IMG/VR virus record: IMGVR_UViG_3300025855_000003
From: a virus
Length of the DNA stretch: 34,094 nt
Reading direction: 5' to 3' (one strand)
In this document: one piece after another, positions 284 through 34,094 of the stretch
Position numbering within the stretch: the stretch's first letter is position 1
Layout: the number at the start of each line of letters is the position of its first letter
Position numbers and translations under genes: made by a program
The notes under the pieces: model-generated
Told to the model about the DNA's origin: nothing
Seen by the model: the letters and a program-made list of their open reading frames with translations, nothing else
Databases searched by the model: none

Positions 284-1213
284 ATGGATTTAACTGAGTT
301 TAAGTGCTTTCTACTTGAAACTGGCAAATCCCAAGAAACTGTTGGGTATTATGCACGTTTGATTAATAGCTTTCTAAAATTCAATGATTTCAACGATGAA
401 AATTGTAAAAAATGGATTTTAGAAAAAACTCTGAAATTCTCTGCTTCTTGTAGAAATAAATATATTAGTGCATTCAAGGCTTATGCTATTTTTTTGGGAA
501 TGGATTTTGCTCAAAAATATAAAAGAATTGCTGAACATGCCGATGAATACGAAAGACTAACGATTGACGAAACTTGGAAACTAATTGAGTTTGATCCATA
601 CCCAAATAGAATGAGTGTTTTGTTTCTTGTTATAGCATCAACTGGATGCCGACCCTCAGAAGTTTTAAAGGCTCAAAAAAGGCATTTATCTTTCAGAATG
701 ATAAAGATTAAATCAAAGACAGGTGAGATCCGAAGAATTGCTTTGAATAGCTTTGTTTATCAAAAGGTTTTGGAGTATTTGGAAAATACACAGATTGACT
801 CAGAATATATTTTTCCAAATTATAAAGGCTTAGTAATGACAACTGCCGGACTTTCCAAAGAGTTTAGAAAAAGGCTTGACTTGCTTGGTATTTATAAAAA
901 CACCAGAGTTTATGATTTAAGACATTCGTATATTACAAGACAGGTGAGAAATAACCCTCTTCCACATGTTCAAACACAAGTTGGCCACAGAAAGCTAGAT
1001 ACTACCCAACATTATACGCATCCTGATGATCAAGATTTGCTTTTATTATCCGAGAGAGATTCTTTGTTTGCGGAAAATATGGATTCAACAGAACAACTTT
1101 CAGAATTAATTGAAGAAGTTAAAAGAAGAGGATTTTTTAATAATAAAAAGTTTGAATGGAAAATCAGTAAAAATTCTTTGTCTATTGCTATTCAAAAAAA
1201 AGTGATACAGTAA
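284..1213 (+). CDS. int: Tyrosine recombinase / phage integrase (Xer-like, short N-terminal core-binding domain)
   Basis: 309-aa ORF carrying the catalytic signature in order: GCRPSEVL (Arg), YDLRHSYITR (H/Y-x-x-R), GHRKLDTTQHYTH (His...Tyr nucleophile). It is the only long plus-strand backbone gene. Confidence 0.9.
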   Translation: MDLTEFKCFLLETGKSQETVGYYARLINSFLKFNDFNDENCKKWILEKTLKFSASCRNKYISAFKAYAIFLGMDFAQKYKRIAEHADEYERLTIDETWKLIEFDPYPNRMSVLFLVIASTGCRPSEVLKAQKRHLSFRMIKIKSKTGEIRRIALNSFVYQKVLEYLENTQIDSEYIFPNYKGLVMTTAGLSKEFRKRLDLLGIYKNTRVYDLRHSYITRQVRNNPLPHVQTQVGHRKLDTTQHYTHPDDQDLLLLSERDSLFAENMDSTEQLSELIEEVKRRGFFNNKKFEWKISKNSLSIAIQKKVIQ

Positions 1214-4667: not shown

Positions 4668-4685
4668 AATTTCTCCTTTTAAAAC

Positions 4686-4732
4686 AAAAAAAGCGGTCTT
4701 ATTTCTAAGACCGCCCTTTTCATGGTTACGGA
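4686..4732 (-). terminator. Conserved CGTAACC box + GC hairpin + U-tract element, copy A
   Basis: Minus strand reads tccgtaaccatgaaaa GGGCGGTCTTA gaaa TAAGACCGC ttttttt. The SD and tail-fibre ATG follow 19 nt later. Confidence 0.8.
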
Positions 4733-4752
4733 TTTCTTCTCTAAATTGACAC

Positions 4753-7523: not shown

Positions 7524-10500
7524 CTAAATTTTTAAACCCTGAAAATATGTGGGTTTTAATTTGATACTAGGCAAGTTCATCTTTTTTAGTTTGATTCTGC
7601 CATTTGTATTAGTCGTTGAGCTTAAATTTATCTCAGGAATAGAGGATAATCTTGATCTTCCTCCAGTAGAATTAAATTGAATAAGAGGAACCTTTGCACC
7701 TCCAGTAGAAAGTTGTCTGCTTGGAATAGGAGTTTCTTTAATTGAAATCTTTTTGCCTGCTTTTGAGGATTTCTTAACTGTTTTTGATTTTTCATCCCAT
7801 TGGATAGACTTTAAGTATTTGCCTTCAGCACTACTTAAAACTCCCTCATCTACCAATTCATTAATGTTGTTGTCAGAAAGTATTCTCGAACCTCGAACTT
7901 CTTTTCTAAGCAATGCCAAAGCCTCTAATTTGTCTTGGTCTTCTGGAATTGTGGCAATATATTGAGAAACAAACATTCTTCTGATTTGAGATGATTCATA
8001 ATCTGAACCAGAGGCAATATCGTAATAAGAGAGATCCTCACTAGAAACACCTAACTTTTTGAAAATAGCTTCTTTGTCTTGATCATTTAAAGTGTCTGTT
8101 TCAGCACGATAAATTTCCATTGCTTTGTCGAACTTCTCACCTTCAAAGCGGATTTTCTTAATTGGATCACTTGGAGCTTCTTCTGTGTATTTTGCAAAAT
8201 CTATTGTTTTAACGCTTTGAGCTTCATCATCCCAATACATTACTTTGTTATCTGTGGAAATTGAATCTTTTTTCATTGCCTTTGCTTGTTTTGGGCTAAA
8301 CAGAGATTCAAGCCAAGTTTTATCTTTGGGATTATATTTTTCTTCTAATTCCTTTTTTTGATCGCCCAACTCTTGGGCTTGTTTTTTAGCTTCAGAAAAC
8401 TGATAAGCTCCCTCTGGATTTTGCTCATAAAGATCTTTGAATTGTTGAATTTGTTTACCTTTTAGATGAGCAACATCGCTAGATGCTGATGGATAAAGAG
8501 GAACCTCTAACATTCCTGGCAGAGCTTCTTTTAAAGATCTCTGATCAGTTACTAACTCAAGCCCTGTTCTTATCCAGGGATGAGACATCTGACCGGCCAC
8601 TGCTCCGCTTATTTTTGAAAGTTTTGCTAAACCAGAATCATCTTCTTGGTAAATTGGTGAACCATAAAAGTTTCTGTTTGTCGCCACCATTGAGAGAGCA
8701 TTAACTGGAATAGAGGCAAAACTGGTCATTTTCTGAGTAGCTCCAGCAATATCTCCACCGGCTAATTCTCCACCGGCTTCAATAAATCTTCTTGGAACTG
8801 TGCCGATTGTGAATAAAAATGGTAGATAGAATGATCTACCACCACCAATAGGAATTTCCAGAGAAAGTTCTTTACCATCTTTGTTTTCAAACATCCAACG
8901 ACCAGTGCTTTGTTTATTCATTATGTTGTATAAGGCCCAAGTAATTCCTGCTCCAACAATGAATTTTCTATTTACTGAGAATGCTTTGTCGCTGAATGTT
9001 CTTGGGTCAATAGATTTAATTGTTTTTCCCCAAAAACCCATCATTGCTTCTCTGAATCTTGGAGCCATCACAAAAGCAGAAAGAATTTCTTCTGTTTGTG
9101 CTGGTCTTGAAAAAGCATCAGTTAAACCATAGAAGTTTTTAGTTGCTTCAGAAGCAATTCTTTTGGCTTGAGTAGCATCGATTCCATCTTTTAAAGCTCC
9201 TTCATAAGCATCTTTGTAAAACTGAGTTTGTAGAACAGGCATGAAACGCTTGAAAGTTGGTTCATTAAACCATGAATCAAAGACGTCTTTAGTTCCTCCA
9301 AACAAGTTCTGCCAGAAATTTTTCTTCTCTGCTAAGTTTTTATACATGGAACCAAAATCAGTATTGGTAAAAACTGGAATACCTTCGCTGGCCATGTCTT
9401 TTAGAGTTTGTTGGTTTTCTTTGAAATACTGTGCAGTTTTTTGATCAGAAAGCGAAATTGCTAATGAGGCAAATGGACCTTTTACTCTTCCTGCTAAGAT
9501 TTCTTTTTGCATATTCGCCAGAGTAAAAGAGTTAATTGGAGTTTTTGGAATACCAGCAGACAAAGCAAATTCTTGAACACCTTTAGATAATTTAGCCATT
9601 TTGCTTAAAAGACCTGGTTCTCTCACTTCAAAGATGTTGTTGATAGCATTAGCAATGTCCGGAGGAGCTTTGTAATCCATAACAATTGGATCGGAAACAC
9701 CTGTTTCTAGTTTTACCTTTGGAAAAAATGGCGATTCAATTGCTCTCCAATCAATAGGAGCTTTGCTTGATGGGAGAAGCAACTCAGATTCAATTAAACG
9801 ATCTGCCATTTTTCTATTGGCTAGAGCTTTGTCTAATTGCAATTTATAGTGAGCAACTAATTGAGCTGGATGTGTATATCTTGGAGTTAAACCAATGCTC
9901 ACACCTTCCTGATAAGTAGGAATAAATCTTTCTTTCGTAAAACCAGGATTTTTACCAGCTCCAGCTTTAATTTTGGCATTTATTTGATTCGGAGTTTCTT
10001 TCCAAATCTGATTGAGGTAATTATCTAAGTAATTGATCTCTAAACCCTGTTTTAAACCCTCTTGCCTCGTTGCATCATAGAATTGTCTTAACCTACTGAT
10101 TTGTGGTTGGTACTTATTAATATCTAGATCTAACTCATAAGCACTTCTGTTGGTTGGATTTTGAATATATTGGATAAGTTTCCACCCATCTTTTTCTGGA
10201 ATATCTGTAAATTCTTGAGCAACTTCATTAGCATTGACTCTTGAAGTCATGTTTTCATTTCTCCAGTCTTGCATTATTTCTTGGACCTCTTTGGGAGCAT
10301 TTTTAAGAGGATCAAAAACTTTATTAAACCAGCGTTTCAAACCAGATTGTTGAATCTCGTTGTAATAACTCTGTGCTTTTGCATAATCGACTTCTTCTTG
10401 AGTAGGATCAAATTGACTATATTTATTTCCAGTAATTCTCTTCGGAGTGTTGCCAATTTGAGGTTCGAACTCACCCATCATTGGAGTTCTGGTTCTTTTT

Positions 10501-13007
10501 GGTGAAGTTTTAGTTAAAATGCTTGGATCATAATCATATGGAGGAATGTTTTCTTCAATAATTCTTCTAGCCTCATTTGCTCCTATTTTGTCCACCTGAG
10601 CTTTTGAGTAACCCATTTGCATCAATCTAGAACCATCATTCATTAAATGATCTAGGTCTTGAAGTCTTGGATCAGAAGGATCTAGCTGAGTTTTCTTTAA
10701 GCGAACCTTACCTTTTTGTTCAATGACTTTTGAAACTGGAGTAAAACCAGATTGAACTGGTGCTTCATTAATCAATGGAGCTCTTTCAATAATATCTGTT
10801 TGTTTTTCTGTACTTTCTTTTGTACTTGGTTGTACTTGCTTAATAGATGGAGCATTTGAAAACAAACTTTTATCTACTTCAACCTTATAAATGTTATTTC
10901 CAGCTTCTTGTGCATTTTTTATAAAGTTTTTACTTCTTAACCAATCCAAATATCCTATGTTTGCCTGGTTTGGCTTAATATAAATAATGCTTTTTCTACT
11001 CTTCCACAAATCTCCGACAGGCTCAACAAGTTTAAATGTATCTCCAATTTGATGTTTTAGAGCATTCACTGGATCTGTTTCCAGAACAGTTGATGAAGAA
11101 CTTTTAGTGGTATTGTTTAAACTATCTAACTTTTGTTGAATGGTTGACGCTTCTTTTCTTAATCCATCAACCATTTGCACGAAATTTTTATCATTATTCA
11201 AATAAGCTCCATAGTGGGTATAGCTTTTAATCTTTTTATTTAAATTCTCCAAATCTCTTGAGAGAATTATCCTTTCATCAACTTTATATTTATTCGCCAA
11301 CTCTTCTTTGCTTAACTTAAGATCTGATGGATCTTGGCCAACACTCTTAAAAGCATCAGCAACTAATTTGTCTGAAGCATCCTCAAAGTCATTGCTATTT
11401 AGTTTTGTTTTTGAAGATAAAGGTACTTTGCCGGTTGGTTTTGCAGATTGGGCTTTCAAAATTTGATCTTCTAGAGAACTAACTCTTTCAAGAAGTTTTT
11501 TAGCTTCCACATCGCCTTGTTTTGCGTAATGCTCAATCTGGTCTTTTGCTGACTGTCTAGCCGGTAAATCTGCTTGCCATTTACCAGAAACATTAAATGA
11601 CTTGGTTCCTAAAATATCGTCAAGTTGAGTTTGAAGGGTTTTGATATCTCCACGAGAGTAATTACCATCAAACTTTAAATCTCCATTTTTGACCGCTTTG
11701 ATGCCTCCCATCAGAGCAATTCCTGCAATAGCTTTCTTTGGATCGACTTTGACTCCAACAATGTTTCCATTTTCGTCTTTTTCTGGCTCTAAACCGGCAA
11801 CTGCACCATATGCGGGTTGAAGTTGTTGCCTAACAAAACCACCATTCTCTTTTTGGGCCCAATTACCTCTTGGGTTTTGATATTTAAAATCAAATTCATT
11901 AAACATTTTTCTGAGTTTCGGAGAAAGATTGGCTTTATTAAAATCTGGATGAGTTCTTATGGTTAACATTTGTTCTTTTGTCCATCCACCATATTGACCA
12001 TTTTTAGATCTTGGTTGTTGTAAAAGGTCTTTTAAAGAGCCTCTGGCTTCTTGTTTTAAAGGTATTTTTTTGTTTCCAAGTCGAGAAGGAGCGTATTCAC
12101 CAGTCATTTGTTTGAATTTAGTTTTTATATCTTTGGCTTTATCTAAAACCGCACCACCAACTGGACCACTGGCACCTATACCAAAACCAATAGCTCCACT
12201 TGCTAAGCGGTCTTTGTTTGTAGGGGCTTGACCTTTTACTCTTGAAAGAATTTCATCTTCAATGATGTTGGCAAGGGCATTGGCACCACCAGAAACAGCA
12301 ATTTTTGTTTTTAAAGGAACTCTGGAAGTTTTGCCAACAATTTTATCGACTGATGGTTGAGTGAGTTTATTTACTCCTCTATACGAGAGAGAGTTACCAA
12401 CACCAGAACCAAAACCTTCAGCAAAGCTACCACCAGTTAGTTTATTTACTCCACCACCTATTCCTCCAGAGATTCCGGCATATTTAGCCAAATCTTTGAG
12501 ACTAGCTCCTTTAGCACCAAACAATTGAATCCCTGTTCCAATTGTGCCAGCGACAGTATCGCTAATGCCTTGCTTTACATCATCACCAAATCTTTTAAAT
12601 TGATTTGCCTGGTTTTCTCCATGATTAACAGAAATTTCAGAGAGTTTCCTAGCACGATCTATGTTTCCGGCTTTTAATTGACGATTTGACTGATTATTAA
12701 GGGTTTGTTGGAGCCTTCTTGTGGTTTCTGCCTCTTTATTTAAACGTGCCAATTCAAAAGGAGCTTTAATTGCTGTTCCAATACCTTTTCCCATTGTTTT
12801 GGGATTTTCAGAAAATTCCTTCCAAGCATTTTGAGAAGCCACTTTTATTGGTTCAACAACTTTTTTTATTGGTTGAGTGATAGGTCTTGCCCAATCACTT
12901 CTAGTTTCAGAATTAGAAATACTTCTGAGGTTCCCAACTATGTTTTGCTGAGAATCCTCAAGTACCTTTTTAACCCTTCGTAGTAAGTCTGATACTGTTT
13001 TTGCCAA
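7524..13007 (-). CDS. Giant virion-associated protein (internal/ejection or tape-measure-like), 1827 aa
   Basis: Uninterrupted 5.5-kb ORF with a TTG start preceded by aaggag. It has an N-terminal Gly-rich hydrophobic stretch (GTIGTGIQLFGAKGAS...GISGGIGGGVNKLTGGSFAEGFGSGVGNS) and many coiled-coil-like segments. I could not recognise any enzymatic motif. Confidence 0.6.
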   Translation of the reverse strand: MAKTVSDLLRRVKKVLEDSQQNIVGNLRSISNSETRSDWARPITQPIKKVVEPIKVASQNAWKEFSENPKTMGKGIGTAIKAPFELARLNKEAETTRRLQQTLNNQSNRQLKAGNIDRARKLSEISVNHGENQANQFKRFGDDVKQGISDTVAGTIGTGIQLFGAKGASLKDLAKYAGISGGIGGGVNKLTGGSFAEGFGSGVGNSLSYRGVNKLTQPSVDKIVGKTSRVPLKTKIAVSGGANALANIIEDEILSRVKGQAPTNKDRLASGAIGFGIGASGPVGGAVLDKAKDIKTKFKQMTGEYAPSRLGNKKIPLKQEARGSLKDLLQQPRSKNGQYGGWTKEQMLTIRTHPDFNKANLSPKLRKMFNEFDFKYQNPRGNWAQKENGGFVRQQLQPAYGAVAGLEPEKDENGNIVGVKVDPKKAIAGIALMGGIKAVKNGDLKFDGNYSRGDIKTLQTQLDDILGTKSFNVSGKWQADLPARQSAKDQIEHYAKQGDVEAKKLLERVSSLEDQILKAQSAKPTGKVPLSSKTKLNSNDFEDASDKLVADAFKSVGQDPSDLKLSKEELANKYKVDERIILSRDLENLNKKIKSYTHYGAYLNNDKNFVQMVDGLRKEASTIQQKLDSLNNTTKSSSSTVLETDPVNALKHQIGDTFKLVEPVGDLWKSRKSIIYIKPNQANIGYLDWLRSKNFIKNAQEAGNNIYKVEVDKSLFSNAPSIKQVQPSTKESTEKQTDIIERAPLINEAPVQSGFTPVSKVIEQKGKVRLKKTQLDPSDPRLQDLDHLMNDGSRLMQMGYSKAQVDKIGANEARRIIEENIPPYDYDPSILTKTSPKRTRTPMMGEFEPQIGNTPKRITGNKYSQFDPTQEEVDYAKAQSYYNEIQQSGLKRWFNKVFDPLKNAPKEVQEIMQDWRNENMTSRVNANEVAQEFTDIPEKDGWKLIQYIQNPTNRSAYELDLDINKYQPQISRLRQFYDATRQEGLKQGLEINYLDNYLNQIWKETPNQINAKIKAGAGKNPGFTKERFIPTYQEGVSIGLTPRYTHPAQLVAHYKLQLDKALANRKMADRLIESELLLPSSKAPIDWRAIESPFFPKVKLETGVSDPIVMDYKAPPDIANAINNIFEVREPGLLSKMAKLSKGVQEFALSAGIPKTPINSFTLANMQKEILAGRVKGPFASLAISLSDQKTAQYFKENQQTLKDMASEGIPVFTNTDFGSMYKNLAEKKNFWQNLFGGTKDVFDSWFNEPTFKRFMPVLQTQFYKDAYEGALKDGIDATQAKRIASEATKNFYGLTDAFSRPAQTEEILSAFVMAPRFREAMMGFWGKTIKSIDPRTFSDKAFSVNRKFIVGAGITWALYNIMNKQSTGRWMFENKDGKELSLEIPIGGGRSFYLPFLFTIGTVPRRFIEAGGELAGGDIAGATQKMTSFASIPVNALSMVATNRNFYGSPIYQEDDSGLAKLSKISGAVAGQMSHPWIRTGLELVTDQRSLKEALPGMLEVPLYPSASSDVAHLKGKQIQQFKDLYEQNPEGAYQFSEAKKQAQELGDQKKELEEKYNPKDKTWLESLFSPKQAKAMKKDSISTDNKVMYWDDEAQSVKTIDFAKYTEEAPSDPIKKIRFEGEKFDKAMEIYRAETDTLNDQDKEAIFKKLGVSSEDLSYYDIASGSDYESSQIRRMFVSQYIATIPEDQDKLEALALLRKEVRGSRILSDNNINELVDEGVLSSAEGKYLKSIQWDEKSKTVKKSSKAGKKISIKETPIPSRQLSTGGAKVPLIQFNSTGGRSRLSSIPEINLSSTTNTNGRIKLKKMNLPSIKLKPTYFQGLKI

Positions 13008-13024
13008 AGTTGACTCCTTTTTTA

Positions 13025-14308
13025 TTAAGCCAAATAGTCTTCTCTAATCTTTTTAGCGGTAGCTAATGGGTTGTAAAACTCTGAAGAGTTCTTTTCTCCA
13101 ACTGGTTGAGAAGAGTTCAACATTTGAAGCTCGTTAAAAACGATGTCTCTTGGGTTAAAATTAGCTTTTCCAGATAATTCCAACTTGATATTATTTAATT
13201 CAGACATACGACTGGTTGCCCAATTTGCAATATCTGTTTGTCTTTGTCTGGTTTCTGCCTCGAGATTTCTTAAGTTAGCTGTTGCCTCAGATAATAAAGA
13301 CTGACTCAAACTAGCTAAATCTTTGGCCTTATCCAGAGGAGCATTGGCAATGGCGAATTGGATATTTTTAATTGCATTTCCGTAATACTCTTTAACTGAC
13401 TGGAGTTTTTGTTCTTTTTGGATTTCTGTATCTCTCCACATTTCACTAAACTGAAGTTCAGTGTCTTTTTCTTGCTGATCAATTTCAAAGAGTTGCTGAT
13501 TAGATTGGTTTCTAACCGAACCTTCTTGCTGACCTGCAATTTTGGTGTAGGCATATGGCATCATTACTTTGGATGCTGAAGTATCACCACCACCCATTGC
13601 TCCAAGTTGCATAGACATACCACGAACAACATTCGAAAGATTGTCTTGAAGTTCTTTTATTGAAGAAGTTTCTCTCTCTTTGACCTGATTACGATTAATA
13701 TCCAGTTTTTCCATGTTGGTTTTTTTCTGGTCTTCCAGGCCACCAAAAATCTGTTCATATACCTTAGAAGCAGAACTCAAATCCTCTTCTTGAGATTTGT
13801 TATAAGAAGTTTCTAAACCACCTAATTTCTTGACATATTCGTCATAACCAGTATTGATTTCGTTGCGAACCTGAGCCTCTCTATTAGAAGGATTATTTTG
13901 ATTTAAATAATCTTGATACTGATTCCAGTTGTCAAAGCCTAGTGATCGAGCATAATCATCTTTTTTTACTGGATTGGAAAGATCGACAGAAGAATCTGAA
14001 GCTGAAACATTGGTTTTAGTGTTTCCAGTGTTGCCTCCTGTATTTTTAACAACATCTGTTAAAAATGGACCATTTTGATTACCACTTGGCCACTCTTGAT
14101 TTTCCTGAGCATGCACTTTAGATGGTTGTGATGTGCCAAATAAGTTATTTACTATATTTGAATACTGACCACCAGTGGCAGAATTTATTTTATTGCCAGC
14201 TTGATAAAGCAATCCAGTTGATGGAGCATTTTTTATTGCCTGTTCGATTCCATAGCTACCTGGTAATATGCCTATTGCTCCTGCTATTACGTCTTTAATT
14301 AATGCCAT
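13025..14308 (-). CDS. Virion internal/structural protein, 427 aa
   Basis: It has a Gly-rich hydrophobic N-terminus (MALIKDVIAGAIGILPGSYG), a Gln/Asn/Glu-rich coiled-coil body and SD gaaagga. It lies directly upstream of the giant gene. Confidence 0.5.
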   Translation of the reverse strand: MALIKDVIAGAIGILPGSYGIEQAIKNAPSTGLLYQAGNKINSATGGQYSNIVNNLFGTSQPSKVHAQENQEWPSGNQNGPFLTDVVKNTGGNTGNTKTNVSASDSSVDLSNPVKKDDYARSLGFDNWNQYQDYLNQNNPSNREAQVRNEINTGYDEYVKKLGGLETSYNKSQEEDLSSASKVYEQIFGGLEDQKKTNMEKLDINRNQVKERETSSIKELQDNLSNVVRGMSMQLGAMGGGDTSASKVMMPYAYTKIAGQQEGSVRNQSNQQLFEIDQQEKDTELQFSEMWRDTEIQKEQKLQSVKEYYGNAIKNIQFAIANAPLDKAKDLASLSQSLLSEATANLRNLEAETRQRQTDIANWATSRMSELNNIKLELSGKANFNPRDIVFNELQMLNSSQPVGEKNSSEFYNPLATAKKIREDYLA

Positions 14309-14336
14309 ATATGTCCTTTCGTGTTATAATTAGCTT

Positions 14337-14597
14337 GTGCAAAAAACAATTAAAAAAATCGGATACTTTAATTCTTTTTTGATTTCTATATGGTTTATTC
14401 CATTTTTTATTTCTATTGCTATATTTTTTAGTGTTTTAAATAAAAATTTATTTCAACTACTAGCTGATGGATTTATGGCTTTCCAGAATAATCCAAATGA
14501 TCTTGCTAGCTTAATCTCTGGTGGTTTGATTATTTTTGCCTCAATTCCGCTTTTTATTGCGGTTTTCACCAGAGTTAAAAGGAAAAACAAGTTTTAA
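14337..14597 (+). CDS. Small two-TM membrane protein (moron candidate)
   Basis: 86 aa with a GTG start 6 nt after a TATAAT hexamer (14325-14330) and no SD. There are two long hydrophobic helices. No competing minus-strand ORF exists here. Confidence 0.45.
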   Translation: MQKTIKKIGYFNSFLISIWFIPFFISIAIFFSVLNKNLFQLLADGFMAFQNNPNDLASLISGGLIIFASIPLFIAVFTRVKRKNKF

Positions 14598-14614
14598 TTT
14601 CTCCTTTTTAAAAC

Positions 14615-14661
14615 AAAAAAGCGGTCTTATTTCTAAGACCGCCCTTTATTTCGGTTACGGA
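14615..14661 (-). terminator. Conserved CGTAACC box + GC hairpin + U-tract element, copy B (orphan: no ORF follows)
   Basis: Minus strand reads tccgtaaccgaaataaa GGGCGGTCTTA gaaa TAAGACCGC tttttt gttttaaaaaggagaaatt. An AAA codon then occupies the position where copy A has its ATG. Confidence 0.75.
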
Positions 14662-14691
14662 TTGTTTAGTTGATCCCTAGCTTTTTGATAC

Positions 14692-14724
14692 AAAAAAAAC
14701 CGCACCAATAAACTATTGTGCGGT
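14692..14724 (-). terminator. Upstream hairpin of twin-hairpin module B
   Basis: Minus strand reads accgcacaat-agttt-attggtgcggt followed by tttttttt. Confidence 0.65.
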
Positions 14725-14820
14725 TCAGGACCAAGACAATGCTTGGGAAGAACTAAGTAACTATAACATGGGGTTTTTGCAAAAGTCAATAATAAGTGGT
14801 TTAATAAATAAAAGTTTAAA

Positions 14821-15105
14821 ATGATTGACTACAAAGAGAATAAAATCAAAGAAAAAAGAAAACTTGGTGATCCTAGACCAAAAACATGGATTATTCAATT
14901 AATCATAGGTGCTATTTTTAATTTCGTGATTGGCGGTGGAATTTTTGGAACAATAGGAACTATTCTCTTTTTGGTTGGATTTGCCAATTTTATTTTATTC
15001 ATTTACTTAAAAACAAAAAATATACCAGTTTTAAGATTTTTGGTACCAATTATTCTTATAGCAATAGTTCTTTTGATTGTAGCTAGCTTATTATCTGGTA
15101 GCTAA
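14821..15105 (+). CDS. Small polytopic membrane protein (moron / superinfection-exclusion candidate)
   Basis: 94 aa with a basic N-terminus followed by three hydrophobic helices. No SD. A TATAAC hexamer lies at 14762-14767. Confidence 0.55.
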   Translation: MIDYKENKIKEKRKLGDPRPKTWIIQLIIGAIFNFVIGGGIFGTIGTILFLVGFANFILFIYLKTKNIPVLRFLVPIILIAIVLLIVASLLSGS

Positions 15106-15111
15106 TTAGAG

Positions 15112-15402
15112 TTAGTAGCCTTTAAGAACGCAAGATTCGTTTAAATAACTCCACGCATCTTCGATATTTCCATAGCCATCTCCATCCATAAATAACTCAA
15201 TACTGTACATTGAATCTTCAACACTTCTGTATGTCGAAGAGAAACAATCTTCCATTCTTTTATTTTTCTCTTCTAGCTTTGAAATTTGCAATTCCAATGT
15301 CTCTTCTCTTGATTTAGAGGACTTCTTTAACTCTGGAGCAAAAGAGGCAAAAAAAGCAAAGGTTGCTAATAACGCGAAAGAAACTAATATACCTTTAAGC
15401 AT
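15112..15402 (-). CDS. Small secreted or membrane-anchored protein
   Basis: 96 aa with an N-terminal signal/anchor-like segment (LKGILVSFALLATFAFFASFA), followed by a coiled-coil segment and an acidic domain containing two Cys. Confidence 0.55.
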   Translation of the reverse strand: MLKGILVSFALLATFAFFASFAPELKKSSKSREETLELQISKLEEKNKRMEDCFSSTYRSVEDSMYSIELFMDGDGYGNIEDAWSYLNESCVLKGY

Positions 15403-15509
15403 TTGTTATTGGTATTCTATCAGAAAAAAACCAAGTGTTTAAAGTATAATAATACTAGAGATTATTTTAGTAATGGCACAAACAAATTTTTAAAATTTAA
15501 ACTAATAAT

Positions 15510-15926
15510 ATGAATCAAATCGAAGAAAACATTAAAAAACATCAACTCGAAGCTCATAAAAATAAAGTTTGGCAAGAGTATTCTAAATGGAGAGAAAATC
15601 CAGTTTATTGCCCAGCTTTAAAAGAAAAAGTAAATTTTACTTTGCGTGGGTGGAAACACACTGTTGGCGAAGACAAAAAGAGAACAATTGATGATATTCA
15701 AGTAAGACTGAGAATGATGTCAAAAGTGAGAGAAATTATTGAAAAATCCAATTTTATGCAAGATGTTGAATCGTTTGATGGCAAGATAAGGTACAGTTTT
15801 ATTGCGGTCGAAATGCTTAAGGAAGAAAGTGGATCAGCTTATACAAAACTCTTTGTGATCGTGGAAAAAGACAGCTATGGGAATCTCACTTTTTTATCAG
15901 TCTTTAGAAGAAGACCGAGACTCTAA
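15510..15926 (+). CDS. Hypothetical cytoplasmic protein, 138 aa (moron; function unknown)
   Basis: Clean 138-aa ORF on the strand opposite the backbone. It has no SD, and a TAAAAT hexamer ends 13 nt before the ATG. The basic C-terminus reads FRRRPRL. Confidence 0.6.
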   Translation: MNQIEENIKKHQLEAHKNKVWQEYSKWRENPVYCPALKEKVNFTLRGWKHTVGEDKKRTIDDIQVRLRMMSKVREIIEKSNFMQDVESFDGKIRYSFIAVEMLKEESGSAYTKLFVIVEKDSYGNLTFLSVFRRRPRL

Positions 15927-15936
15927 AACCCAAAAG

Positions 15937-16003
15937 GGTGAGGTGTCTCACGCTTCTGTAAGTTAACTTAGCGTTGTCGAAAGCATTGCTCTCTCACCTC
16001 ACC
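15937..16003. terminator. Large GC-clamped stem-loop between convergent genes (probable bidirectional terminator or structured RNA)
   Basis: ggtgaggtg (15937-15945) pairs with cacctcacc (15995-16003). An inner stem pairs acgct with agcgt (15950-15974). On the minus strand the structure is followed by cttttgggttt. Confidence 0.45.
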
Positions 16004-16046
16004 GAGAATTATACCAAATATGATATTGTTGTCAAACTAGCTGTAT

Positions 16047-16424
16047 CTATTGAGCTGATTGTAGCTCGGCCACAATTCTCTCAATTAATTCAAGTTTTTT
16101 GCCAGATTTATCAATTTTAAGGTCTTTAGCCATTTTCCATAATTCTGGCATACCTCTGGTTTTCAGGTGTTCGAACATATCTTCTATGCTGACATCCTCC
16201 TCTTTATCATTAGAAGCATTCACTGCCTTTTTTGAGCCTTTAGAAACTGGCTTAGACACTGGTTTTTCTTTTTCAGCATCAGGTTTTTCGACATCTGGAA
16301 CACCAAATGGACCATGCGGAGAATCACTCCAACCTTCAGGAATGTCTTCTGGTCTATCGAAAATTTTAGACTCTCCATTTGGACCAAACATGAATTTTGG
16401 ATATTCTATTACTGTTTCTGCCAT
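16047..16424 (-). CDS. Acidic/Pro-rich protein with a C-terminal HeH (SAP / Rho-N-like) motif
   Basis: 125 aa. The C-terminus MPELWKMAKDLKIDKSGKKLELIERIVAEL fits the helix-extension-helix pattern of Rho N-terminal/SAP-like domains. The gene lies immediately downstream of the capsid gene. Confidence 0.6.
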   Translation of the reverse strand: MAETVIEYPKFMFGPNGESKIFDRPEDIPEGWSDSPHGPFGVPDVEKPDAEKEKPVSKPVSKGSKKAVNASNDKEEDVSIEDMFEHLKTRGMPELWKMAKDLKIDKSGKKLELIERIVAELQSAQ

Positions 16425-16442
16425 AGTGTTCCTTTCTTGAAC

Positions 16443-16485
16443 AAAAAAAGCGAGCTATAAAGCTCGCCCTTGTTTATGGTTACGA
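16443..16485 (-). terminator. CGTAACC box + GC hairpin + U-tract element, copy C (variant stem)
   Basis: Minus strand reads atcgtaaccataaacaa GGGCGAGCT ttat AGCTCGC ttttttt. The SD (aaaggaa) and the ATG at 16424 follow. Confidence 0.75.
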
Positions 16486-16506
16486 TGGTTCTAGTATAGC
16501 ACAACC

Positions 16507-16535
16507 AAAAAAGGTGGCCTTTCGACCACCTTTTT
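16507..16535 (-). terminator. Intrinsic (bidirectional-looking) terminator just after the major capsid gene
   Basis: aaaaaggtgg-cctttcga-ccaccttttt, with T/A tracts on both sides, about 20 nt after the capsid gene stop at 16556. Confidence 0.75.
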
Positions 16536-16555
16536 CTTTAAGCTATTAGATTCAA

Positions 16556-17812
16556 CTAAGAAGTTATATCTAACTCAGCTTGCCCACTGATACGAATACC
16601 TAAGCGTGGATCGATGTTTTTAACACCATAGAGGACATCACATCTTGAAAGATGAGTGTCGTGTACGCCATCAGATATTCTCCAGAAACGAACACTGAGT
16701 CCAGTTTCTTTGTCGGTAGCAAAAGAGTAATTGCCACTTTCAGGAGCAACGAGCTTGGCACCAACCAAAGCGATAGAGCTACGATGGAAGATCGAGTTCT
16801 GTCGATAAGCGGTCGATGGATCACCAATAAAGGTTACTGGAGCTGAGTTTGCTGGAGCTGAAGTTACATTCTGGTAGGCACCAGTTGTGATGATTGGGTT
16901 AGCAATCGACACAGTAACTTTGCCATCAACACCGACTTCTTTGTCTGCTTGAACAACAAACATCTGTAAGTAACCAAGATCGGCTTTGTTAGCTGGGTTG
17001 ACTGCGTTTACACCTGCGATGGTGAAAACCTCACCAGCTTTAATAGTAGCTCCTGAAGCTAGACCCTTGAGTTTGAGGTCTTGAACATAGGTTGTTCTCA
17101 CAGTTTCATAAGCTACATTTTGACTGGCTCCGTCAACTTGACCAGCAGAAGAAGAAACACGAGTACCAGTAACCAAATTGATTACGTTTTGACTCATGTA
17201 AGCCTGGACATTACCAAGTAAAGGTAATTTGGCCTTCTCCAAAGCGGTTTTAACGGTTGAATCAGAGTTCAAACCAGTTAAACTTCCAGCTAATCCCCAA
17301 TAATCAGCAGGGGATAAAATACCAAAGCGATCATTGTTTGGAATGGATAACTCATCCATTCTTTGTGGACCAACAAAGAAATCTTTGGCACTGTCGATTG
17401 TTTCACCAGGAGTTCCAACCCAATGAGGGAACTTCAAGGTTTCAGCAACTATATCAGCATCAATCTGTTGGGCCAAAGCAGAGGCTTGGCTCTTCATGTT
17501 TTGATTTTTCAATAGTTCATCGACTTCCAAAGTAAGTTCTTTAGAGGTGAATTGAAGATCAACACCCTTCTGTTTGTCGATGGTAATATCAACAGAACCG
17601 GTTTTACTGTCTTGAACTTCGGCATCAGCACCATCACGGACTGTGTATTCCGGTGGTCTTCTAACTTTTACTGTATCGCCAACTGCAATTTGCTCACTTG
17701 AAAAATCTTTGTCGAATTTAGTATTGACGAGTTTGCCCATCACTAATTCATTTTTCAAAAGCAAAAGGAAAGCGTTAGCAACTTTTTGTGTGTTAACAAA
17801 TGAATTTGCCAT
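16556..17812 (-). CDS. Major capsid protein (HK97 fold, P22 coat-like)
   Basis: 418 aa located directly after the scaffold gene. From memory, the C-terminal stretch SRCDVLYGVKNIDPRLGIRISGQ resembles the P22 gp5 C-terminus ([24 protein letters not shown]). SD is aaggaaa. The gene is followed by two terminators, as expected for a highly expressed gene. Confidence 0.8.
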   Translation of the reverse strand: MANSFVNTQKVANAFLLLLKNELVMGKLVNTKFDKDFSSEQIAVGDTVKVRRPPEYTVRDGADAEVQDSKTGSVDITIDKQKGVDLQFTSKELTLEVDELLKNQNMKSQASALAQQIDADIVAETLKFPHWVGTPGETIDSAKDFFVGPQRMDELSIPNNDRFGILSPADYWGLAGSLTGLNSDSTVKTALEKAKLPLLGNVQAYMSQNVINLVTGTRVSSSAGQVDGASQNVAYETVRTTYVQDLKLKGLASGATIKAGEVFTIAGVNAVNPANKADLGYLQMFVVQADKEVGVDGKVTVSIANPIITTGAYQNVTSAPANSAPVTFIGDPSTAYRQNSIFHRSSIALVGAKLVAPESGNYSFATDKETGLSVRFWRISDGVHDTHLSRCDVLYGVKNIDPRLGIRISGQAELDITS

Positions 17813-17874
17813 ATGTTTTTTTCCTTAAGTTTCGAGAACGAAACATAATTATTAATAGATGGGAAATTTGCTTG

Positions 17875-18666
17875 TTAGGCTTTCGAGGAAAAGCCTTTTT
17901 CAAATTCTGAAAAGTCTTCCGTATTAGGGTCGGCCTTTTTAGAACTTCTTAGGCTTGTACTTATTGGAACAGCTTGATTCTGAGAAATTTCTTCTGAGTA
18001 TCTCTTGTTTGAAGTTGAATCAAACTCAGTAATACCATCGAGGTCTTTTTCTAGCTGACGAACAATTTCACTCATTTTTACAGCAGGAATAAATTCCTTT
18101 TTACCAGTAAGAGGATTAATTGCAGAATTAACTAACTCATACTGTTTGATAGCTAACTTTTCTAAGTGAGGCGGAACTTTCTCCGCCATACTCTCCAAGT
18201 CAGCTTGATGCTCTAAAACTGCGGACTTGTATTCATTGTTAAGTTGAGTAATTTTGTTAGATTTTTCAATCTGAGCAATTTTCTCTGAAACTTCAGCTTG
18301 AATGCGTTTTTGCACTCTTTCCTCAAAGCCCTCTGGATCCAAAGCTCCCTCTGCCCTCTCTTCTGGAGTAATCAGCGGAGTTTTAGAAATTTCTTTTGAA
18401 GGTGCCTTTTCTAGAACGGAATCAACGTTTGCTTGTCTTAATTTATTAAGAAGCTGGCCAACTCTTTTTTCAGCTCTAGTTGGTTTTTTCTGTTCCTCAT
18501 GATCTTCCTGATTTCCCTCAGGATTCTCATTCGAATGCTTTGTTTGTTCCTCATTTTGTTCTTGATTGGATTCTTCAATAATCCCATCATCAACTCGTGA
18601 ATTACTCTCTTCAGCAGGTGGCGTAACCTGCGAGGTCTGCAAGACCTCTTCATTTTGTTCTGCCAT
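17875..18666 (-). CDS. Scaffolding protein
   Basis: 263 aa, strongly acidic (Glu/Gln/Asn-rich N-terminus) and predicted helical/coiled coil. It lies between the portal-side genes and the capsid gene. Confidence 0.7.
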   Translation of the reverse strand: MAEQNEEVLQTSQVTPPAEESNSRVDDGIIEESNQEQNEEQTKHSNENPEGNQEDHEEQKKPTRAEKRVGQLLNKLRQANVDSVLEKAPSKEISKTPLITPEERAEGALDPEGFEERVQKRIQAEVSEKIAQIEKSNKITQLNNEYKSAVLEHQADLESMAEKVPPHLEKLAIKQYELVNSAINPLTGKKEFIPAVKMSEIVRQLEKDLDGITEFDSTSNKRYSEEISQNQAVPISTSLRSSKKADPNTEDFSEFEKGFSSKA

Positions 18667-18723
18667 AATGTTTTCTTTCTGACCACGCGTTTACTAGGGG
18701 TCGACCACTAGGTGTAACACAAC

Positions 18724-18771
18724 AAAAAAAGCGGTCTTATTTCTAAGACCGCCCTTAATTTCGGTTACGGA
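18724..18771 (-). terminator. Conserved CGTAACC box + GC hairpin + U-tract element, copy D
   Basis: Minus strand reads tccgtaaccgaaattaa GGGCGGTCTTA gaaa TAAGACCGC ttttttt, 57 nt upstream of the scaffold ATG. Confidence 0.8.
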
Positions 18772-18791
18772 TAACAAGTTCAATATATCAA

Positions 18792-19401: not shown

Positions 19402-19556
19402 ATGGATTCAATCTCCCTTATTTCTTTTAATAAATTTCCTCTCTCTGAAGAGGAAAACTTTTTATATTGTTTTTCTGATCTAAGTTCTTTTTCTTGCTCT
19501 TTGACAAAATTGCGTTTTTTCTTAAATTTGAGTTTTTGATAATGTCTATCTTGCAT
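19398..19556 (-). CDS. Hypothetical very basic 52-aa protein (not in the ORF track)
   Basis: Translates as MQDRHYQKLKFKKKRNFVKEQEKELRSEKQYKKFSSSERGNLLKEIREIESI. It fills the portal-to-107-aa gap exactly, starting inside the last codons of the portal gene and ending in an ATGA overlap with the next gene. Confidence 0.45.
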   Translation of the reverse strand: MQDRHYQKLKFKKKRNFVKEQEKELRSEKQYKKFSSSERGNLLKEIREIESI

Positions 19557-21513
19557 TTCCTTGAGATATTTCTTGAAGTTCTTTCATTACTTCCGAAAAA
19601 GCCGGATCTTTGAAATCACCAATTGAAGAATTAGGGTTTGAATAATTAGCCGGTGGAGAGTAAGTAACTGGCGGATTAGAAGCACTAGGAACTACGCCAG
19701 GAGTTGATTGAGGTGGTGTGGTCGGTATTTCTTGAGCAGATGGAATATTATCTGGAGTATTTTGAGAAAACGCTGAGGGATTATTTTGTATTTCTTGCAA
19801 GATTTGTTTTACTAAACCTTGAACTTTTGGATCTTCTAGATTAAGAGGGTTTTCTCCATCTTCATTATTATCTGTGATAATTTTATCCCAATCGGATACA
19901 CCTGAAGAAATAACCCAACGTTTAATTAGTTCTCCAACATCAAGCGATTTATCACCAAGAGGAATCTTTCCACCTGAAGTTAAAGTGTCTAATGCACCAG
20001 GAATCTTCATCACAAAACCAATGATTTCTGTTAGAGTTTGGTTCTCCATGATCTCGTCTTTTTTGAGAGTAGAACCACGATCAATTTCATATCTGTATTC
20101 AACGTTGGCAATATCTTTGGGTTTGATTTTAACCATACCAGAATCGCCAGTTTCAAACATCTCAACAACGTCAGGAGCTACTTCTTTAACATTTAGAAGA
20201 TCTCTTTCTTTTAGATAGAGATTCATGGTTTTTTCTTGTTTTTTTGAAATTAAGTCAATCATTCTGTCAAAGACTTTTTCGATTCCGAGTTCGAGCATTC
20301 TTCGATCAAACTGAGTCTGCATTCCCTGAGTCATGGCTTGCATTTTCAAGGCTTGAGGAGTTTTTCCAAAACCAGGATCAACAGAGGAAGAAATGCTTGC
20401 ATCTGACGTTTGAGTAACTGTTAGCATCATTGCTTTTAAGAAGTTATATGTTGATTGAAACGCATCACTTGCTTGAGGAGAAACATTCATTTGAGCAACA
20501 CCATCAAAATTGCCTTTGCTCATTAGCCAAATCTGACCGGGCCCAATTCCATCTTTGAAATCATCCCAATTATCTACTGTGGAAGCATCAATCTTAAGTG
20601 GTGGGAAAATACCCATTTTAACACCATCCATGTATAAACTAATTAAACTACTTGAGGCAGAGTGAAGAGTCATTCCTCTTTCAAAATCGCCCAAGCCAAA
20701 GAATCTATCAATCAGAGGATATGAATGGCACATGATCACAGGGATTTTGCCATTCTTCTGAGGGTTAGGAATATCTCTCAATTCAAGATTGGAACCAGCG
20801 TGAAAAGTACGCCAGCGATCACCTTCATATCTAGAAATTAATTCAAATTCATCTTTTGTGGACATTGAGGTGTTGTCTTGTCTTTGAACAACACTTTGAG
20901 AATTTACATCACTTGGACCATCGCCTTTTGTTTTAAGAAGTTTATCAATGTTTTTCCAATACTTTTTATCTCTTGTTTCAAGCCATTTTTTGTTAACTCT
21001 GGATCTAATCCAAATATAATCGCTATCTTCAACTGTTGTTTTTCCAGATTGAGGAATAATATCTCTAGATGGTAAAAGAAAAAAATCTGGACCAGTATAG
21101 CCATTCTTGTTTGTTACAAAGTCAACTAAAACACCAAAAGAACCATAAACTTTTCTGTAAAAAGACCAAAGCCAAAGCTTTGTGAAGACATCAAATTGAG
21201 AAGTGGCATTTGGGATAACATGGTTATGTAGAATCAAATCCATGAATAAAGATTTGCCTTTATTTGCTTTAGTCATGGCAGTGATCTTGCCAGATGGCAT
21301 TTGTGCCATAATTTCATTGTTTTGTTTAAGAACTGAGGATAAAAGTGTTGGATCTGTTATTCTTGAGCTTGTTTCTTTTTGAGAAATCTGATCAACTGAT
21401 TGACTCATCAAAATGCGTTCTTTATCGTCAAAAGATTGATGAATTAAAGAAATAGCATCTAAATCTTTTCTGTATTCATCTAGAATTTCTTTTGTTTTAT
21501 CTGTTTCACTCAT
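19546..21513 (-). CDS. Portal protein
   Basis: 655 aa counted from MSETDK (ATG at 21513; the 7 upstream codons in the track run into the U-tract). Its size, its position just after the terminase genes (one small plus-strand ORF intervenes) and before the scaffold and capsid genes, and its Pro/Ser-rich C-terminal tail are typical of portals. Confidence 0.75.
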   Translation of the reverse strand: MSETDKTKEILDEYRKDLDAISLIHQSFDDKERILMSQSVDQISQKETSSRITDPTLLSSVLKQNNEIMAQMPSGKITAMTKANKGKSLFMDLILHNHVIPNATSQFDVFTKLWLWSFYRKVYGSFGVLVDFVTNKNGYTGPDFFLLPSRDIIPQSGKTTVEDSDYIWIRSRVNKKWLETRDKKYWKNIDKLLKTKGDGPSDVNSQSVVQRQDNTSMSTKDEFELISRYEGDRWRTFHAGSNLELRDIPNPQKNGKIPVIMCHSYPLIDRFFGLGDFERGMTLHSASSSLISLYMDGVKMGIFPPLKIDASTVDNWDDFKDGIGPGQIWLMSKGNFDGVAQMNVSPQASDAFQSTYNFLKAMMLTVTQTSDASISSSVDPGFGKTPQALKMQAMTQGMQTQFDRRMLELGIEKVFDRMIDLISKKQEKTMNLYLKERDLLNVKEVAPDVVEMFETGDSGMVKIKPKDIANVEYRYEIDRGSTLKKDEIMENQTLTEIIGFVMKIPGALDTLTSGGKIPLGDKSLDVGELIKRWVISSGVSDWDKIITDNNEDGENPLNLEDPKVQGLVKQILQEIQNNPSAFSQNTPDNIPSAQEIPTTPPQSTPGVVPSASNPPVTYSPPANYSNPNSSIGDFKDPAFSEVMKELQEISQGNAR

Positions 21514-21532
21514 AAAATCCTGTTTTTGACAC

Positions 21533-21581
21533 AAAAAAAAGCGGTCTTATTTCTAAGACCGCCCTTAATTTCGGTTACGGA
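21533..21581 (-). terminator. Conserved CGTAACC box + GC hairpin + U-tract element, copy E
   Basis: Minus strand reads tccgtaaccgaaattaa GGGCGGTCTTA gaaa TAAGACCGC tttttttt gtgtcaaaaacaggatttt ATG (portal). Confidence 0.8.
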
Positions 21582-21616
21582 TATAGCCACCTTTATGGGT
21601 AACTATTTAAAGTATA

Positions 21617-21820: not shown

Positions 21821-22156
21821 ATGAACAATTTAGCAACATATATTTCGCTTGATAATCTGCTACAAAACCTATCTCATGGCAAAGTTGAATTAGGACTCCA
21901 AGTGAGATCGGGATCTATTGTTTCAATGCTCGTTAGTGGCAAAAAAAGGCTTATTTATAACTCATCAAATAAAGACTTGAATACTAATCAAAAAGCCATA
22001 GAAGACATTGCTAGAAGGATCGTGCAACAACTAAAAAGCGGTGTTTCTAGTGAAATATCTTTCAAAATAAAGAACTTGGGAAATAAAATTAAATGGATTG
22101 AAATTGCCAGCGATCAAAACATTAATCTTAATAAAACTTCTTCATCTGTTGCATAA
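21821..22156 (+). CDS. Small opposite-strand protein, YezD/DUF2292-like N-terminal half (tentative)
   Basis: A 111-aa ORF fills the ~330-nt gap between TerL and portal on the opposite strand. The pattern LSHGKVELGLQVRSGSIVSMLVSGKKRL fits the 'G-x-V-x-h-x-V-x-x-G-x-h-V' signature I recall for YezD-like proteins. TATAAT (21805-21810) ends 10 nt before the ATG, and there is no SD. Confidence 0.5.
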   Translation: MNNLATYISLDNLLQNLSHGKVELGLQVRSGSIVSMLVSGKKRLIYNSSNKDLNTNQKAIEDIARRIVQQLKSGVSSEISFKIKNLGNKIKWIEIASDQNINLNKTSSSVA

Positions 22157-34025: not shown

Positions 34026-34094
34026 GTGTTTACTCTTGTTAGTAGAGTCTTCACATGTCTTTCCTCTTTTGGTTTAGATCCTGGCCCGGGATCA
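33968..34094. repeat. Terminal direct repeat, right copy (identical to 1..127)
   Basis: Exact 127-nt identity with the window start. Confidence 0.9.

Follow-up and report, generated by a model that had tools for sequence, protein, structure and literature searches.

The virus record IMGVR_UViG_3300025855_000003 (IMG/VR), a stretch of 34,094 nt that we refer to as the window, raises the question of why a group of small genes should sit within the late operon of a phage, at positions 14309-16046, where nearly all genes are on the minus strand. Four open reading frames (ORFs) are found there, named P1 (14337..14597, +), P2 (14821..15105, +), P3 (15112..15402, -) and P4 (15510..15926, +). A first-pass annotation had reported them with these same coordinates and strands, and had described two membrane segments in P1, three in P2, a signal/anchor segment in P3 and a cytoplasmic P4; Kyte-Doolittle hydropathy agrees, with one hydrophobic segment at the N-terminus of P3 and none in P4. 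It had also proposed that the four genes form one exclusion or defence module, and that a large "clamp hairpin" downstream of P4 is a flanking element of this island. The hairpin turned out to be a conserved small-RNA gene paired with P4, and we consider it moderately probable that the island is a mosaic of morons whose core is an autonomous, RNA-antitoxin-like toxin or abortive-infection module. In what follows, the proteins P1-P4 are to be distinguished from the RNA helices P1-P3.

The small-RNA gene is ~73 nt long (15931..16003, -) and adopts a three-way junction (covariance-model match of 70.6 bits, E=9e-16), which consists here of a closing helix P1 of 9 bp, a hairpin P2 of 6 bp and a helix P3 of 5 bp with a variable insert. 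The minimum-free-energy fold reproduces the three helices. An invariant AAGCGUGAG precedes the 3' arm of RNA helix P1, a CCCUUUUGGGUUUU tail comes after it, and the 3' end of the RNA lies 5 nt from the P4 stop codon. The promoter of the RNA (16008..16035, -), made of TTGACA, a 16-nt spacer and the extended -10 element TGgTATAAT, is located 12 nt downstream of the stop codon of the SAP-domain gene that borders the island. It is the sole 12/12 consensus match in 13000-18000, and is directed straight into the hairpin. When compared to L004, the relative with the most similar coat protein (89% identity), promoter and hairpin together (112 nt) display three differences, of which one is in the RNA, in a loop, versus 12% in the P4 coding sequence.

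Covariation strongly supports this structure. In a structure-blind MAFFT alignment of 12 copies, RNA helices P1 (10 bp), P2 (6 bp) and P3 (5 bp) are supported, with 96% of the cells paired and both-side changes in 13 of the 21 pairs; none of 500 shuffles was as good, and controls in which the pairing was slid reached at most 56% paired cells. Extending the set to 27 distinct copies gave 93.8% paired cells and compensatory changes in 16 of 21 pairs (110 cells), a covariation attained by 0/500 shuffles, with slid controls at or below 53%. No relevant match was obtained in Rfam 15 for the copy of the window and those of nine other loci, even at E<=1-10, and a query of IMG/VR with the small-RNA sequence returned no match either.

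RNA helix P1 is by nature also an inverted repeat at the 3' end of a gene, the pair of RNA and P4 is mobile, and an IS1595 transposase is inserted beside this pair in L014. The conserved element could thus be conceived as a recombination or transposition site acting at the DNA level, or as a cis-acting 3' untranslated region or terminator of the P4 mRNA. Several observations argue against this. A TTGAC box, a spacer of 16-19 nt and a -10 hexamer are kept at the same position on the opposite strand in 22 of 27 homologous loci; among the other five, four have a near-consensus variant, and the promoter is degenerate in L042, an orphan copy of the RNA (see below). The pairing cells comprise 29 G.U versus 11 A.C, and some pairs of L014 and L021 are wobbles that read as mismatches on the protein-sense strand. 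The two internal hairpins covary as well, and the mRNA-sense strand lacks a U-run after the stem, while on the RNA strand a U-run follows RNA helix P1 in about half of the copies. The excess of G.U cells, the wobbles in L014 and L021 and the conserved promoters indicate that the transcribed strand is the convergent one, and we grant the DNA-site or terminator explanation the slightest chance of all those considered here.

P4 and the small RNA are strictly linked genetically, and constitute a conserved two-part module that is common in Patescibacteria. Wherever the sequence extends over this flank of a P4-like gene, in about 25 distinct loci, the same RNA adjoins the gene; about twelve genomes of Patescibacteria are among them, in which the neighbouring genes are unrelated. 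Searched with a covariance model derived from the 12-copy alignment, each locus gave exactly one match, directly at the 3' end of the P4-like gene and on the other strand, and the relatives that lack P4 gave none. The RNA gene overlaps the P4-like coding sequence in four loci (L016, L028, L029 and L031), and in the others no more than about 20 nt separate the stop codon from the end of its 3' arm. As no mRNA terminator was found between the two abutting or overlapping genes, both transcripts must be complementary at their 3' ends.

The linkage holds in the reverse direction too. We scanned contigs of GTDB (one genome per species) with a pattern derived from the RNA only (ATGACGCTAA, a gap, and AAGYGTGAGG), which matched 21 places. 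Fourteen of these are full covariance-model matches (73-87 bits), 12 of them from metagenome-assembled genomes (MAGs) of Patescibacteria, the source taxa being Daviesbacteria, Shapirobacteria, Woesebacteria, Beckwithbacteria, Blackburnbacteria, Nomurabacteria, Paceibacterota and Saccharimonadales. A convergent ORF related to the domain LPD3, to which P4 itself is similar (see below), accompanies the RNA in 12 of the 14 verified loci (E 1e-41 to 1e-54). One of the two remaining loci is truncated, and the other carries a mere gene remnant: in L042 (2200-2364), from a Candidatus Shapirobacteria MAG, the RNA is orphaned, its -35 element is degenerate, and the LPD3-like gene is reduced to its last codons (...MDKKRRP*). 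In no other case seen was a partner absent, and here it is the protein that was lost. A scan of the genome contigs with a protein pattern gave no match.

The genes around the pair differ from locus to locus (thrS/trpS, nifSU/dNK, TsaD, UvrD, Fic-MerR, ParA, SpoIID), with no recurring adjacent protein partner across the P4-RNA loci. With such unrelated neighbourhoods, the pair is an autonomous two-gene unit. A suppressor tRNA, with anticodon UUA reading UAA, was seen in an unrelated phage-like contig with a P4-RNA pair, directly upstream of the P4 homologue (L014 2069-2155 and L015 5706-5792). We found no description of the P4-RNA pair in Rfam, Pfam, PADLOC or the searchable literature.

What, then, is the protein partner? 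P4 (138 aa) is soluble, resembles a solo LPD3 domain and is a candidate BECR-like RNase. Its start lacks a Shine-Dalgarno (SD) site and is preceded by TAAACT 6 nt before the ATG, suggesting that its mRNA is probably leaderless. A word-indexed protein search retrieved only P4 itself; a full HMMER search of 1.84 billion representative sequences retrieved 86 proteins of the P4 family at E<1e-3, nearly all of 105-156 aa. In the family alignment, G47 and H50 are invariant, and Y24, P35, R58, R66, F128 and S130 are at least 90% conserved. Compared to its counterpart in L004, P4 shows 41 synonymous and 8 non-synonymous differences, and a ratio of non-synonymous to synonymous substitution rates (dN/dS) of 0.027 that reveals strong purifying selection.

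The Pfam family LPD3 (PF18798) is matched by 24 of 50 members of the P4 family at E<0.01 (best E=7.8e-8), P4 itself scoring 19.5 bits (E=1.2e-3), below the gathering threshold of 27 bits. An AlphaFold2 (AF2) model computed from the family alignment, with a mean local-confidence score (pLDDT) of 95.7, has three helices, two short strands and a four-stranded sheet. Its top match in BFVD is a protein annotated as LPD3 (E=1.3e-5, query TM-score (TMq) 0.64), and the next two are giant viral proteins, one of which is annotated with a large polyvalent protein-associated domain (LPD). The likeness to LPD3 thus lies both in this fold and in the Pfam matches of half of the family, and extends to the genomic context, as solo LPDs have been noted beside phage structural genes, where P4 is found as well, in a study that describes the functions of LPDs as unknown (Iyer et al., 2017; PMC5512222). 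On the other side, P4 stays below the Pfam cutoff and is a stand-alone protein rather than a domain of a giant injected one, and no RNA partner has been reported for LPD3.

The top Foldseek match of the model among solved structures is PDB entry 6CP9 (chains A/C/E/G, probability 1.00, E=3.7e-3, TM-score 0.46-0.52). The matched chains, of 117-119 residues, are longer than the 116-aa immunity protein in this entry, and therefore correspond to the toxin, the BECR-fold tRNase CdiA-CT of K. pneumoniae 342, whose active site is composed of Lys, Tyr, His, Arg and Thr (PMC9086364, PMC6851490). BECR toxins have helices followed by a four-stranded sheet, an order also seen in the P4 model, and the conserved Tyr, His, Arg and Ser/Thr of P4 resemble this active site, by residue type only. 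P4 nevertheless has no detectable sequence similarity to these toxins and a TM-score of only about 0.5, and BECR toxins are neutralised by protein immunity factors, not by RNA. A sequence-profile search of the PDB with P4 yielded only noise, P4 and its relatives had no significant match in PADLOC, NCBIfam or PHROGs, and the P4 alignment found no match in IMG/VR.

Based on these elements, we propose a mechanism in which P4 would act as a BECR-like RNase toxin and the small RNA, made from a near-consensus and presumably constitutive promoter, as its antitoxin. Given the arrangement of the two genes, pairing of the RNA with the 3' end of the P4 mRNA would be obligatory, as in type I toxin-antitoxin (TA) systems; the RNA may in addition bind the P4 protein directly, as in type III systems, for its structure and its AAGCGUGAG junction are conserved far more than antisense pairing would require. 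The RNA promoter is near-consensus, and the mRNA of the protein partner often has no leader, with only a -10 hexamer ahead of the start. In a lysogen, such a pair might stabilise the prophage, similarly to plasmid addiction, or abort superinfection when RNA synthesis stops, or both. We infer here the toxicity, the RNase activity, the neutralisation and the expression in lysogens, and estimate the chance that P4 is the toxin and the RNA the antitoxin at somewhat less than even.

The same data accommodate a non-toxic ribonucleoprotein, in which P4 would bind or process RNA and have the structured RNA as its dedicated partner, and both would together form a regulator, an anti-defence or "early invasion" factor, or an RNA-guided or RNA-scaffolded effector that uses the variable insert of RNA helix P3. 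That both the RNA structure and the junction sequence are conserved implies that a protein recognises the RNA, beyond simple antisense pairing, the C-terminal tails of P4 homologues are basic, LPD3 domains occur in injected polyvalent proteins (PMC5512222), and the insert in RNA helix P3 indeed differs in length and sequence between loci. Yet the scattering of the pair among unrelated neighbours, housekeeping genes included, together with the one orphan RNA, fits a selfish toxin-antitoxin pair better, the best match among solved structures is a toxin RNase, and a strong RNA promoter facing weak or leaderless protein expression follows the logic of an antitoxin in excess. We hence view the ribonucleoprotein as possible, though rather unlikely.

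A number of points weigh against the toxin-antitoxin module that we favour. The structural match to BECR toxins is borderline (TM-score about 0.5, E=3.7e-3), and PADLOC and NCBIfam give P4 no significant match. Iyer et al. (2017; PMC5512222) do not list LPD3 among the probably enzymatic LPDs, and suggest that solo LPDs aid early invasion, which is a non-toxin role. A test of the small RNA for complementarity to the 5' part of the P4 transcript gave nothing consistent above shuffled controls, a clear U-run is present in only about half of the RNAs, and the RNA-antitoxin systems known so far have another architecture. Two further reservations concern the surroundings of the pair: a block of the island that is nearly identical in L004 could be an assembly chimera, and the assignment of the phage to a host of the candidate phyla radiation (CPR) is indirect, with the coat gene of one relative lying on a 143-kb contig labelled Chloroflexi.

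How did the pair come to lie beside P1-P3? To put the island in context, we used contigs from ten relatives, found through coat-protein homologues of 51-89% identity. The gene order is conserved among them: portal, two small genes, scaffold, coat, SAP-like gene, the slot, a gene of ~400 aa and a giant protein of 1,093-1,932 aa. Both genes flanking the slot, the SAP-like gene and the 427-aa gene of the window, are kept in all relatives examined according to tblastn, and in L006-L012 the homologues of the latter (42-64% identity) lie directly upstream of the giant-protein gene. The content of the slot is by contrast highly variable, with zero to five unrelated genes in the relatives. Listed from the head side, the window has proteins of 138, 96, 94 and 86 aa, and L004 those of 138, 96 and 94 aa, at which point its contig ends; L005 (coat 74%) has two of 127 and 85 aa on the same strand before its contig ends too. 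In L006/L007 (coat 68%), ~1 kb without called genes precedes genes for 89 and 171 aa on the opposite strand, whereas L008/L009 (coat 68%) carry, also on the opposite strand, genes for 426 and 134 aa that encode a multi-transmembrane protein and a weakly CAP-like one. Three or four unrelated same-strand genes occupy the slot of L010 and L011 (coat 66-67%), and nothing that of L012 (coat 66%), in which 118 nt separate the SAP-like gene from the 388-aa homologue of the 427-aa gene. Slot genes thus oppose the backbone strand in three lineages, and P1-P4 occur at the slot only in the window and L004 among the relatives examined.

The stretch 14309-16046 is therefore a hypervariable slot for accessory genes ("morons"), which the late operon has between its head genes and those of internal or ejection proteins. 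Phage morons are independent transcription units inserted into the late operons of lambdoid and HK97-like phages. As in these, the slot genes of the window sit between two genes that are adjacent in a relative, have a GC content below that of the flanking genes, and belong to a temperate phage. Promoter-like and terminator elements accompany them, the former, other than the small-RNA promoter, being no more frequent than chance in this AT-rich DNA. Unlike a single moron, the slot is a hotspot for multiple cassettes.

Other slots of this kind show features of their own. The cargo of L005 (127 + 85 aa) has a strong promoter (TTGACA, 17 nt, TATATT; at 11770-11870) enclosed by an operator-like inverted repeat (GGGTAAAT/ATTTACCC). 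In L006, the ~1 kb without called genes (11797-12827) contains several terminator-like hairpins and 16 promoter-like sites versus 7.2 expected, and this stretch may thus encode a non-coding RNA.

As for the three remaining genes of the island, a codon-usage log-odds score trained on 19 long genes of the window ranks the own frame first of six for each of P1-P4. P2, P3 and P4 score 0.17-0.18, in the range of the other small genes of this phage, versus 0.08 for P1. AAAGGA-type sites precede most backbone genes, but none of the four starts has an SD match (duplex dG 0 to -0.6). P1 (86 aa) starts with GTG and has two transmembrane segments and a basic C-terminus; it diverges from the 427-aa gene, with TGTTATAAT 6 nt upstream of its start. 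Its codon score of 0.084 is low, although the best of six frames, and P1 is the ORF whose coding status is the least certain of the four. The contig of L004 ends at 14634, so that the comparison with L004 does not reach P1. P2 (94 aa), with three transmembrane segments, a basic N-terminus and a coding score of 0.18, converges on P3 and is 100% nucleotide-identical to its counterpart in L004, while synonymous divergence (dS) in neighbouring genes is 0.26-0.89; it is probably a real gene. P3 (96 aa) is a real gene: its dN/dS relative to L004 is 0.17, with changes concentrated in the N-terminal signal/anchor segment, and an extended -10 element (TGaTAGAAT) 11 nt ahead of its ATG is kept in L004. 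It is predicted to form a long helix and, given its signal-like segment and two cysteines, is probably extracytoplasmic. The single-sequence AF2 model of P3 is of low confidence (pLDDT 64).

The searches made with P1-P3 found no homologues beyond L004 and no family matches, including a tblastn of all three against phage records and a query of IMG/VR with P3. As the first-pass annotation had suggested, the likeliest role of P1-P3 would be that of lysogen-expressed surface or exclusion cargo. Their size and topology could also suggest lysis proteins (holin, antiholin or lysis accessory) for P1 and P2, with or without P3, as P1 resembles class II holins in being small, with two transmembrane segments and a highly basic C-terminus, and P2 is likewise small, with three. 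The only lysin candidate of this phage, a CHAP-like protein of 320 aa (1606-2568), is however 12 kb away and flanked by its own small single-transmembrane proteins (2569-2976 and 1377-1592), which makes a lysis role for P1-P3 unlikely. Moreover, P1 and P2 are transcribed against the late operon and are absent from all relatives but the closest one, while lysis functions should be conserved. We accordingly deem a role in lysis quite improbable.

These results also bear on the idea of a single exclusion or defence system made of the four genes, with the membrane proteins P1-P3 as sensors or executors and P4 as their cytoplasmic partner. In its favour, the genes lie side by side in a slot of variable content, the phage encodes an integrase, membrane or secreted proteins make up three of the four products, and all four genes lack SD sites and have nearby -10-like hexamers. 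The location of the island in a variable slot, which the first-pass annotation had anticipated, is confirmed by the synteny comparison, the content being unrelated in other relatives or missing (L012), and the four genes are far from universally conserved. The same annotation had pointed to -10-like hexamers upstream of the three plus-strand genes, and such hexamers exist 6-11 nt ahead of each of the four starts; yet promoter-like sites are not enriched in 13000-18000 (15 versus 12.7 +/- 3.5 in shuffles), and the hexamers alone are thus not above chance. As to the repeated hairpin modules B and C, said to bound the island, they do so only loosely, B being inside it and C lying upstream of the SAP-domain gene, so that a conserved backbone gene stands between C and the island. 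The idea of a single sensor/effector module itself did not hold: no homologue of P1, P2 or P3 was found in about 25 other distinct loci containing P4, where the constant partner is the RNA. The genes are in convergent and divergent orientations with promoter-like sites of their own, a double terminator cassette separates P1 from P2, and a recombination breakpoint inside P3 separates P2 from P4 historically. A PADLOC check of the four proteins gave only weak, sub-threshold matches (best E=7e-4). We consider a four-gene system very improbable.

The breakpoint was revealed by the comparison with L004. From 14634 to ~15300, i.e., across module B, P2 and the 3' two-thirds of P3, both sequences are 97-100% identical, and identity drops to 79% within the signal segment of P3, with 73-96% elsewhere. 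Either the block was recently exchanged by recombination, or the L004 assembly is chimeric. Rather than one system, the island is a mosaic of cassettes that are independent of each other.

One of these cassettes is regulatory. Module B (14600..14790, -), between P1 and P2, comprises on the minus strand a promoter-like site (14789..14760), a terminator hairpin next to a U-run (about 14700-14723), the box ATCCGTAACC (14653-14662) and a bidirectional terminator hairpin (14616-14647), after which comes an AAAGGAG ribosome-binding site; a terminator scan found bidirectional terminators in the island. It belongs to a repeat family (D1) with four copies on the minus strand of the window (4681-4735, 14609-14663, 18719-18773 and 21529-21583), and module C (16441-16550, -) is a variant fifth copy of the cassette. 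Exactly four occurrences of the box were counted, and the observed match count was not attained in any of 100 shuffles. In the cassette, the box ATC(C)GTAACC is followed after ~6 nt by a strong terminator hairpin, and a late-gene ribosome-binding site comes directly afterwards; its copies precede the 557-aa gene, the 427-aa region, and the SAP-like, scaffold and portal genes. Module C displays the order terminator, TGCTATACT extended -10, box, terminator and ribosome-binding site, and the same architecture follows the coat-protein gene of L005. Judging from these motifs, the repeated cassette looks like a promoter-proximal terminator/antitermination design. The Rfam families Moco-riboswitch and L20-leader were considered for the repeated cassettes and rejected, their matches being weak and below threshold.

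An ORF of 45 aa with a TTG start and a strong SD site (14453-14590, -) lies antisense to P1, with a coding score below that of P1 over the same stretch. It is preceded by AAAAGGAGAAATT, a ribosome-binding sequence also found ahead of the 557-aa gene after module A, which suggests that module B was copied together with its ribosome-binding site.

Which phage carries this slot? Bases 1-127 of the window recur at 33968-34094, and this terminal repeat of 127 nt indicates a complete, closed phage genome of 33,967 bp; the contig is JGI 3300009782 Ga0116157_10000701. A tyrosine integrase is encoded at 284..1213 (+; Pfam Phage_integrase, E=1.2e-20), and the phage can therefore be called temperate, which makes lysogen-expressed cargo plausible. 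Its structural genes include an SU10-like portal (19546-21534) and a P22-type coat protein (16556-17812; Pfam 3e-37). The head-side edge of the slot is formed by the SAP-domain backbone gene (16047..16424, -; 125 aa, with a SAP-like C-terminus, Pfam SAP_new25 E=5.7e-5), and the other edge by the 427-aa backbone gene (13025..14308, -), next to which, downstream of the slot, comes the gene of the 1827-aa giant protein (7524-13007, -). The latter has no Pfam match in the window; its counterpart in L008 (14945-20743) bears PBECR1, a domain of polyvalent proteins, and the backbone may thus encode an injected polyvalent protein beside the solo LPD3-like gene. The DNA of the island has no DNA-level match among the 50,697 phage records of INPHARED, in which the closest coat protein is 33% identical, and a query of IMG/VR with the coat protein gave no match. 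The host of this phage is probably a bacterium of the Patescibacteria (CPR).

Elsewhere in the genome, we noticed a GT4 glycosyltransferase (with a weak "GT4-conflict" match; 25115-26185, -), a weak GT2 match (24280-25128, -) and an FkbM-type methyltransferase (27837-28439, -), the predicted products of which could modify DNA or the cell surface. A 111-aa gene of the packaging/portal region is kept in all relatives and varies in orientation: it is on the opposite strand in the window (21821-22156, +), L005 (5724-6056) and L008/L009 (5795-6103 in L008), and on the backbone strand in L006/L007 (6017-6319 in L006) and L010-L012 (about 5897-6509). This change of orientation is a single-gene inversion. 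In the window, the gene has TGTTATAAT 10 nt ahead of its ATG and no SD site.

Patescibacteria represent a large and mostly uncultured share of bacterial diversity, whose phages, defence systems and non-coding RNAs are poorly known. The locus provides a complete temperate phage that probably infects them, a family of structured RNAs that covariation strongly supports and Rfam does not contain, and a strict genetic link of this RNA to a protein family related to LPD3, of unknown function since 2017. The P4-RNA module is small, about 0.55 kb. If the pair works as proposed, LPD3 domains in injected polyvalent proteins would be RNases or RNA binders, which would be a first functional handle on LPD3. 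We tentatively put forward, at a confidence well short of even, a new class of toxin or abortive-infection systems, widespread in Patescibacteria and carried by their phages, in which one structured RNA, overlapping the mRNA at its 3' end and also bound to the protein, would keep a BECR-like RNase inactive.

Among known systems, the type I TA pairs of prophages, such as yonT/SR6 and bsrG/SR4 of the SPbeta prophage of B. subtilis, come close in genetic layout: they are self-contained, prophage-carried pairs of convergent genes that overlap or abut at their 3' ends, with an RNA expressed from its own strong promoter (PMC5848175). Their toxins are however hydrophobic peptides of less than 60 aa, while P4 is a soluble alpha/beta protein of 138 aa without any hydrophobic segment, and their antitoxin RNAs are conserved neither in sequence nor in structure across distant homologues, in contrast to the RNA of P4 (PMC5848175). 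The type III systems (ToxIN, CptIN and TenpIN), which are phage-defence or abortive-infection modules on mobile elements, differ in layout, with tandem repeats of ~36 nt located upstream on the same strand (PMC8860590), whereas the RNA of P4 is single-copy, convergent and downstream in all loci, and P4 shows no similarity to ToxN/AbiQ. What these systems would share with the P4-RNA pair is the proposed logic, an endoribonuclease toxin neutralised by a structured non-coding RNA (PMC8860590). If the small RNA is indeed an antitoxin, the pair would represent a new architecture between types I and III.

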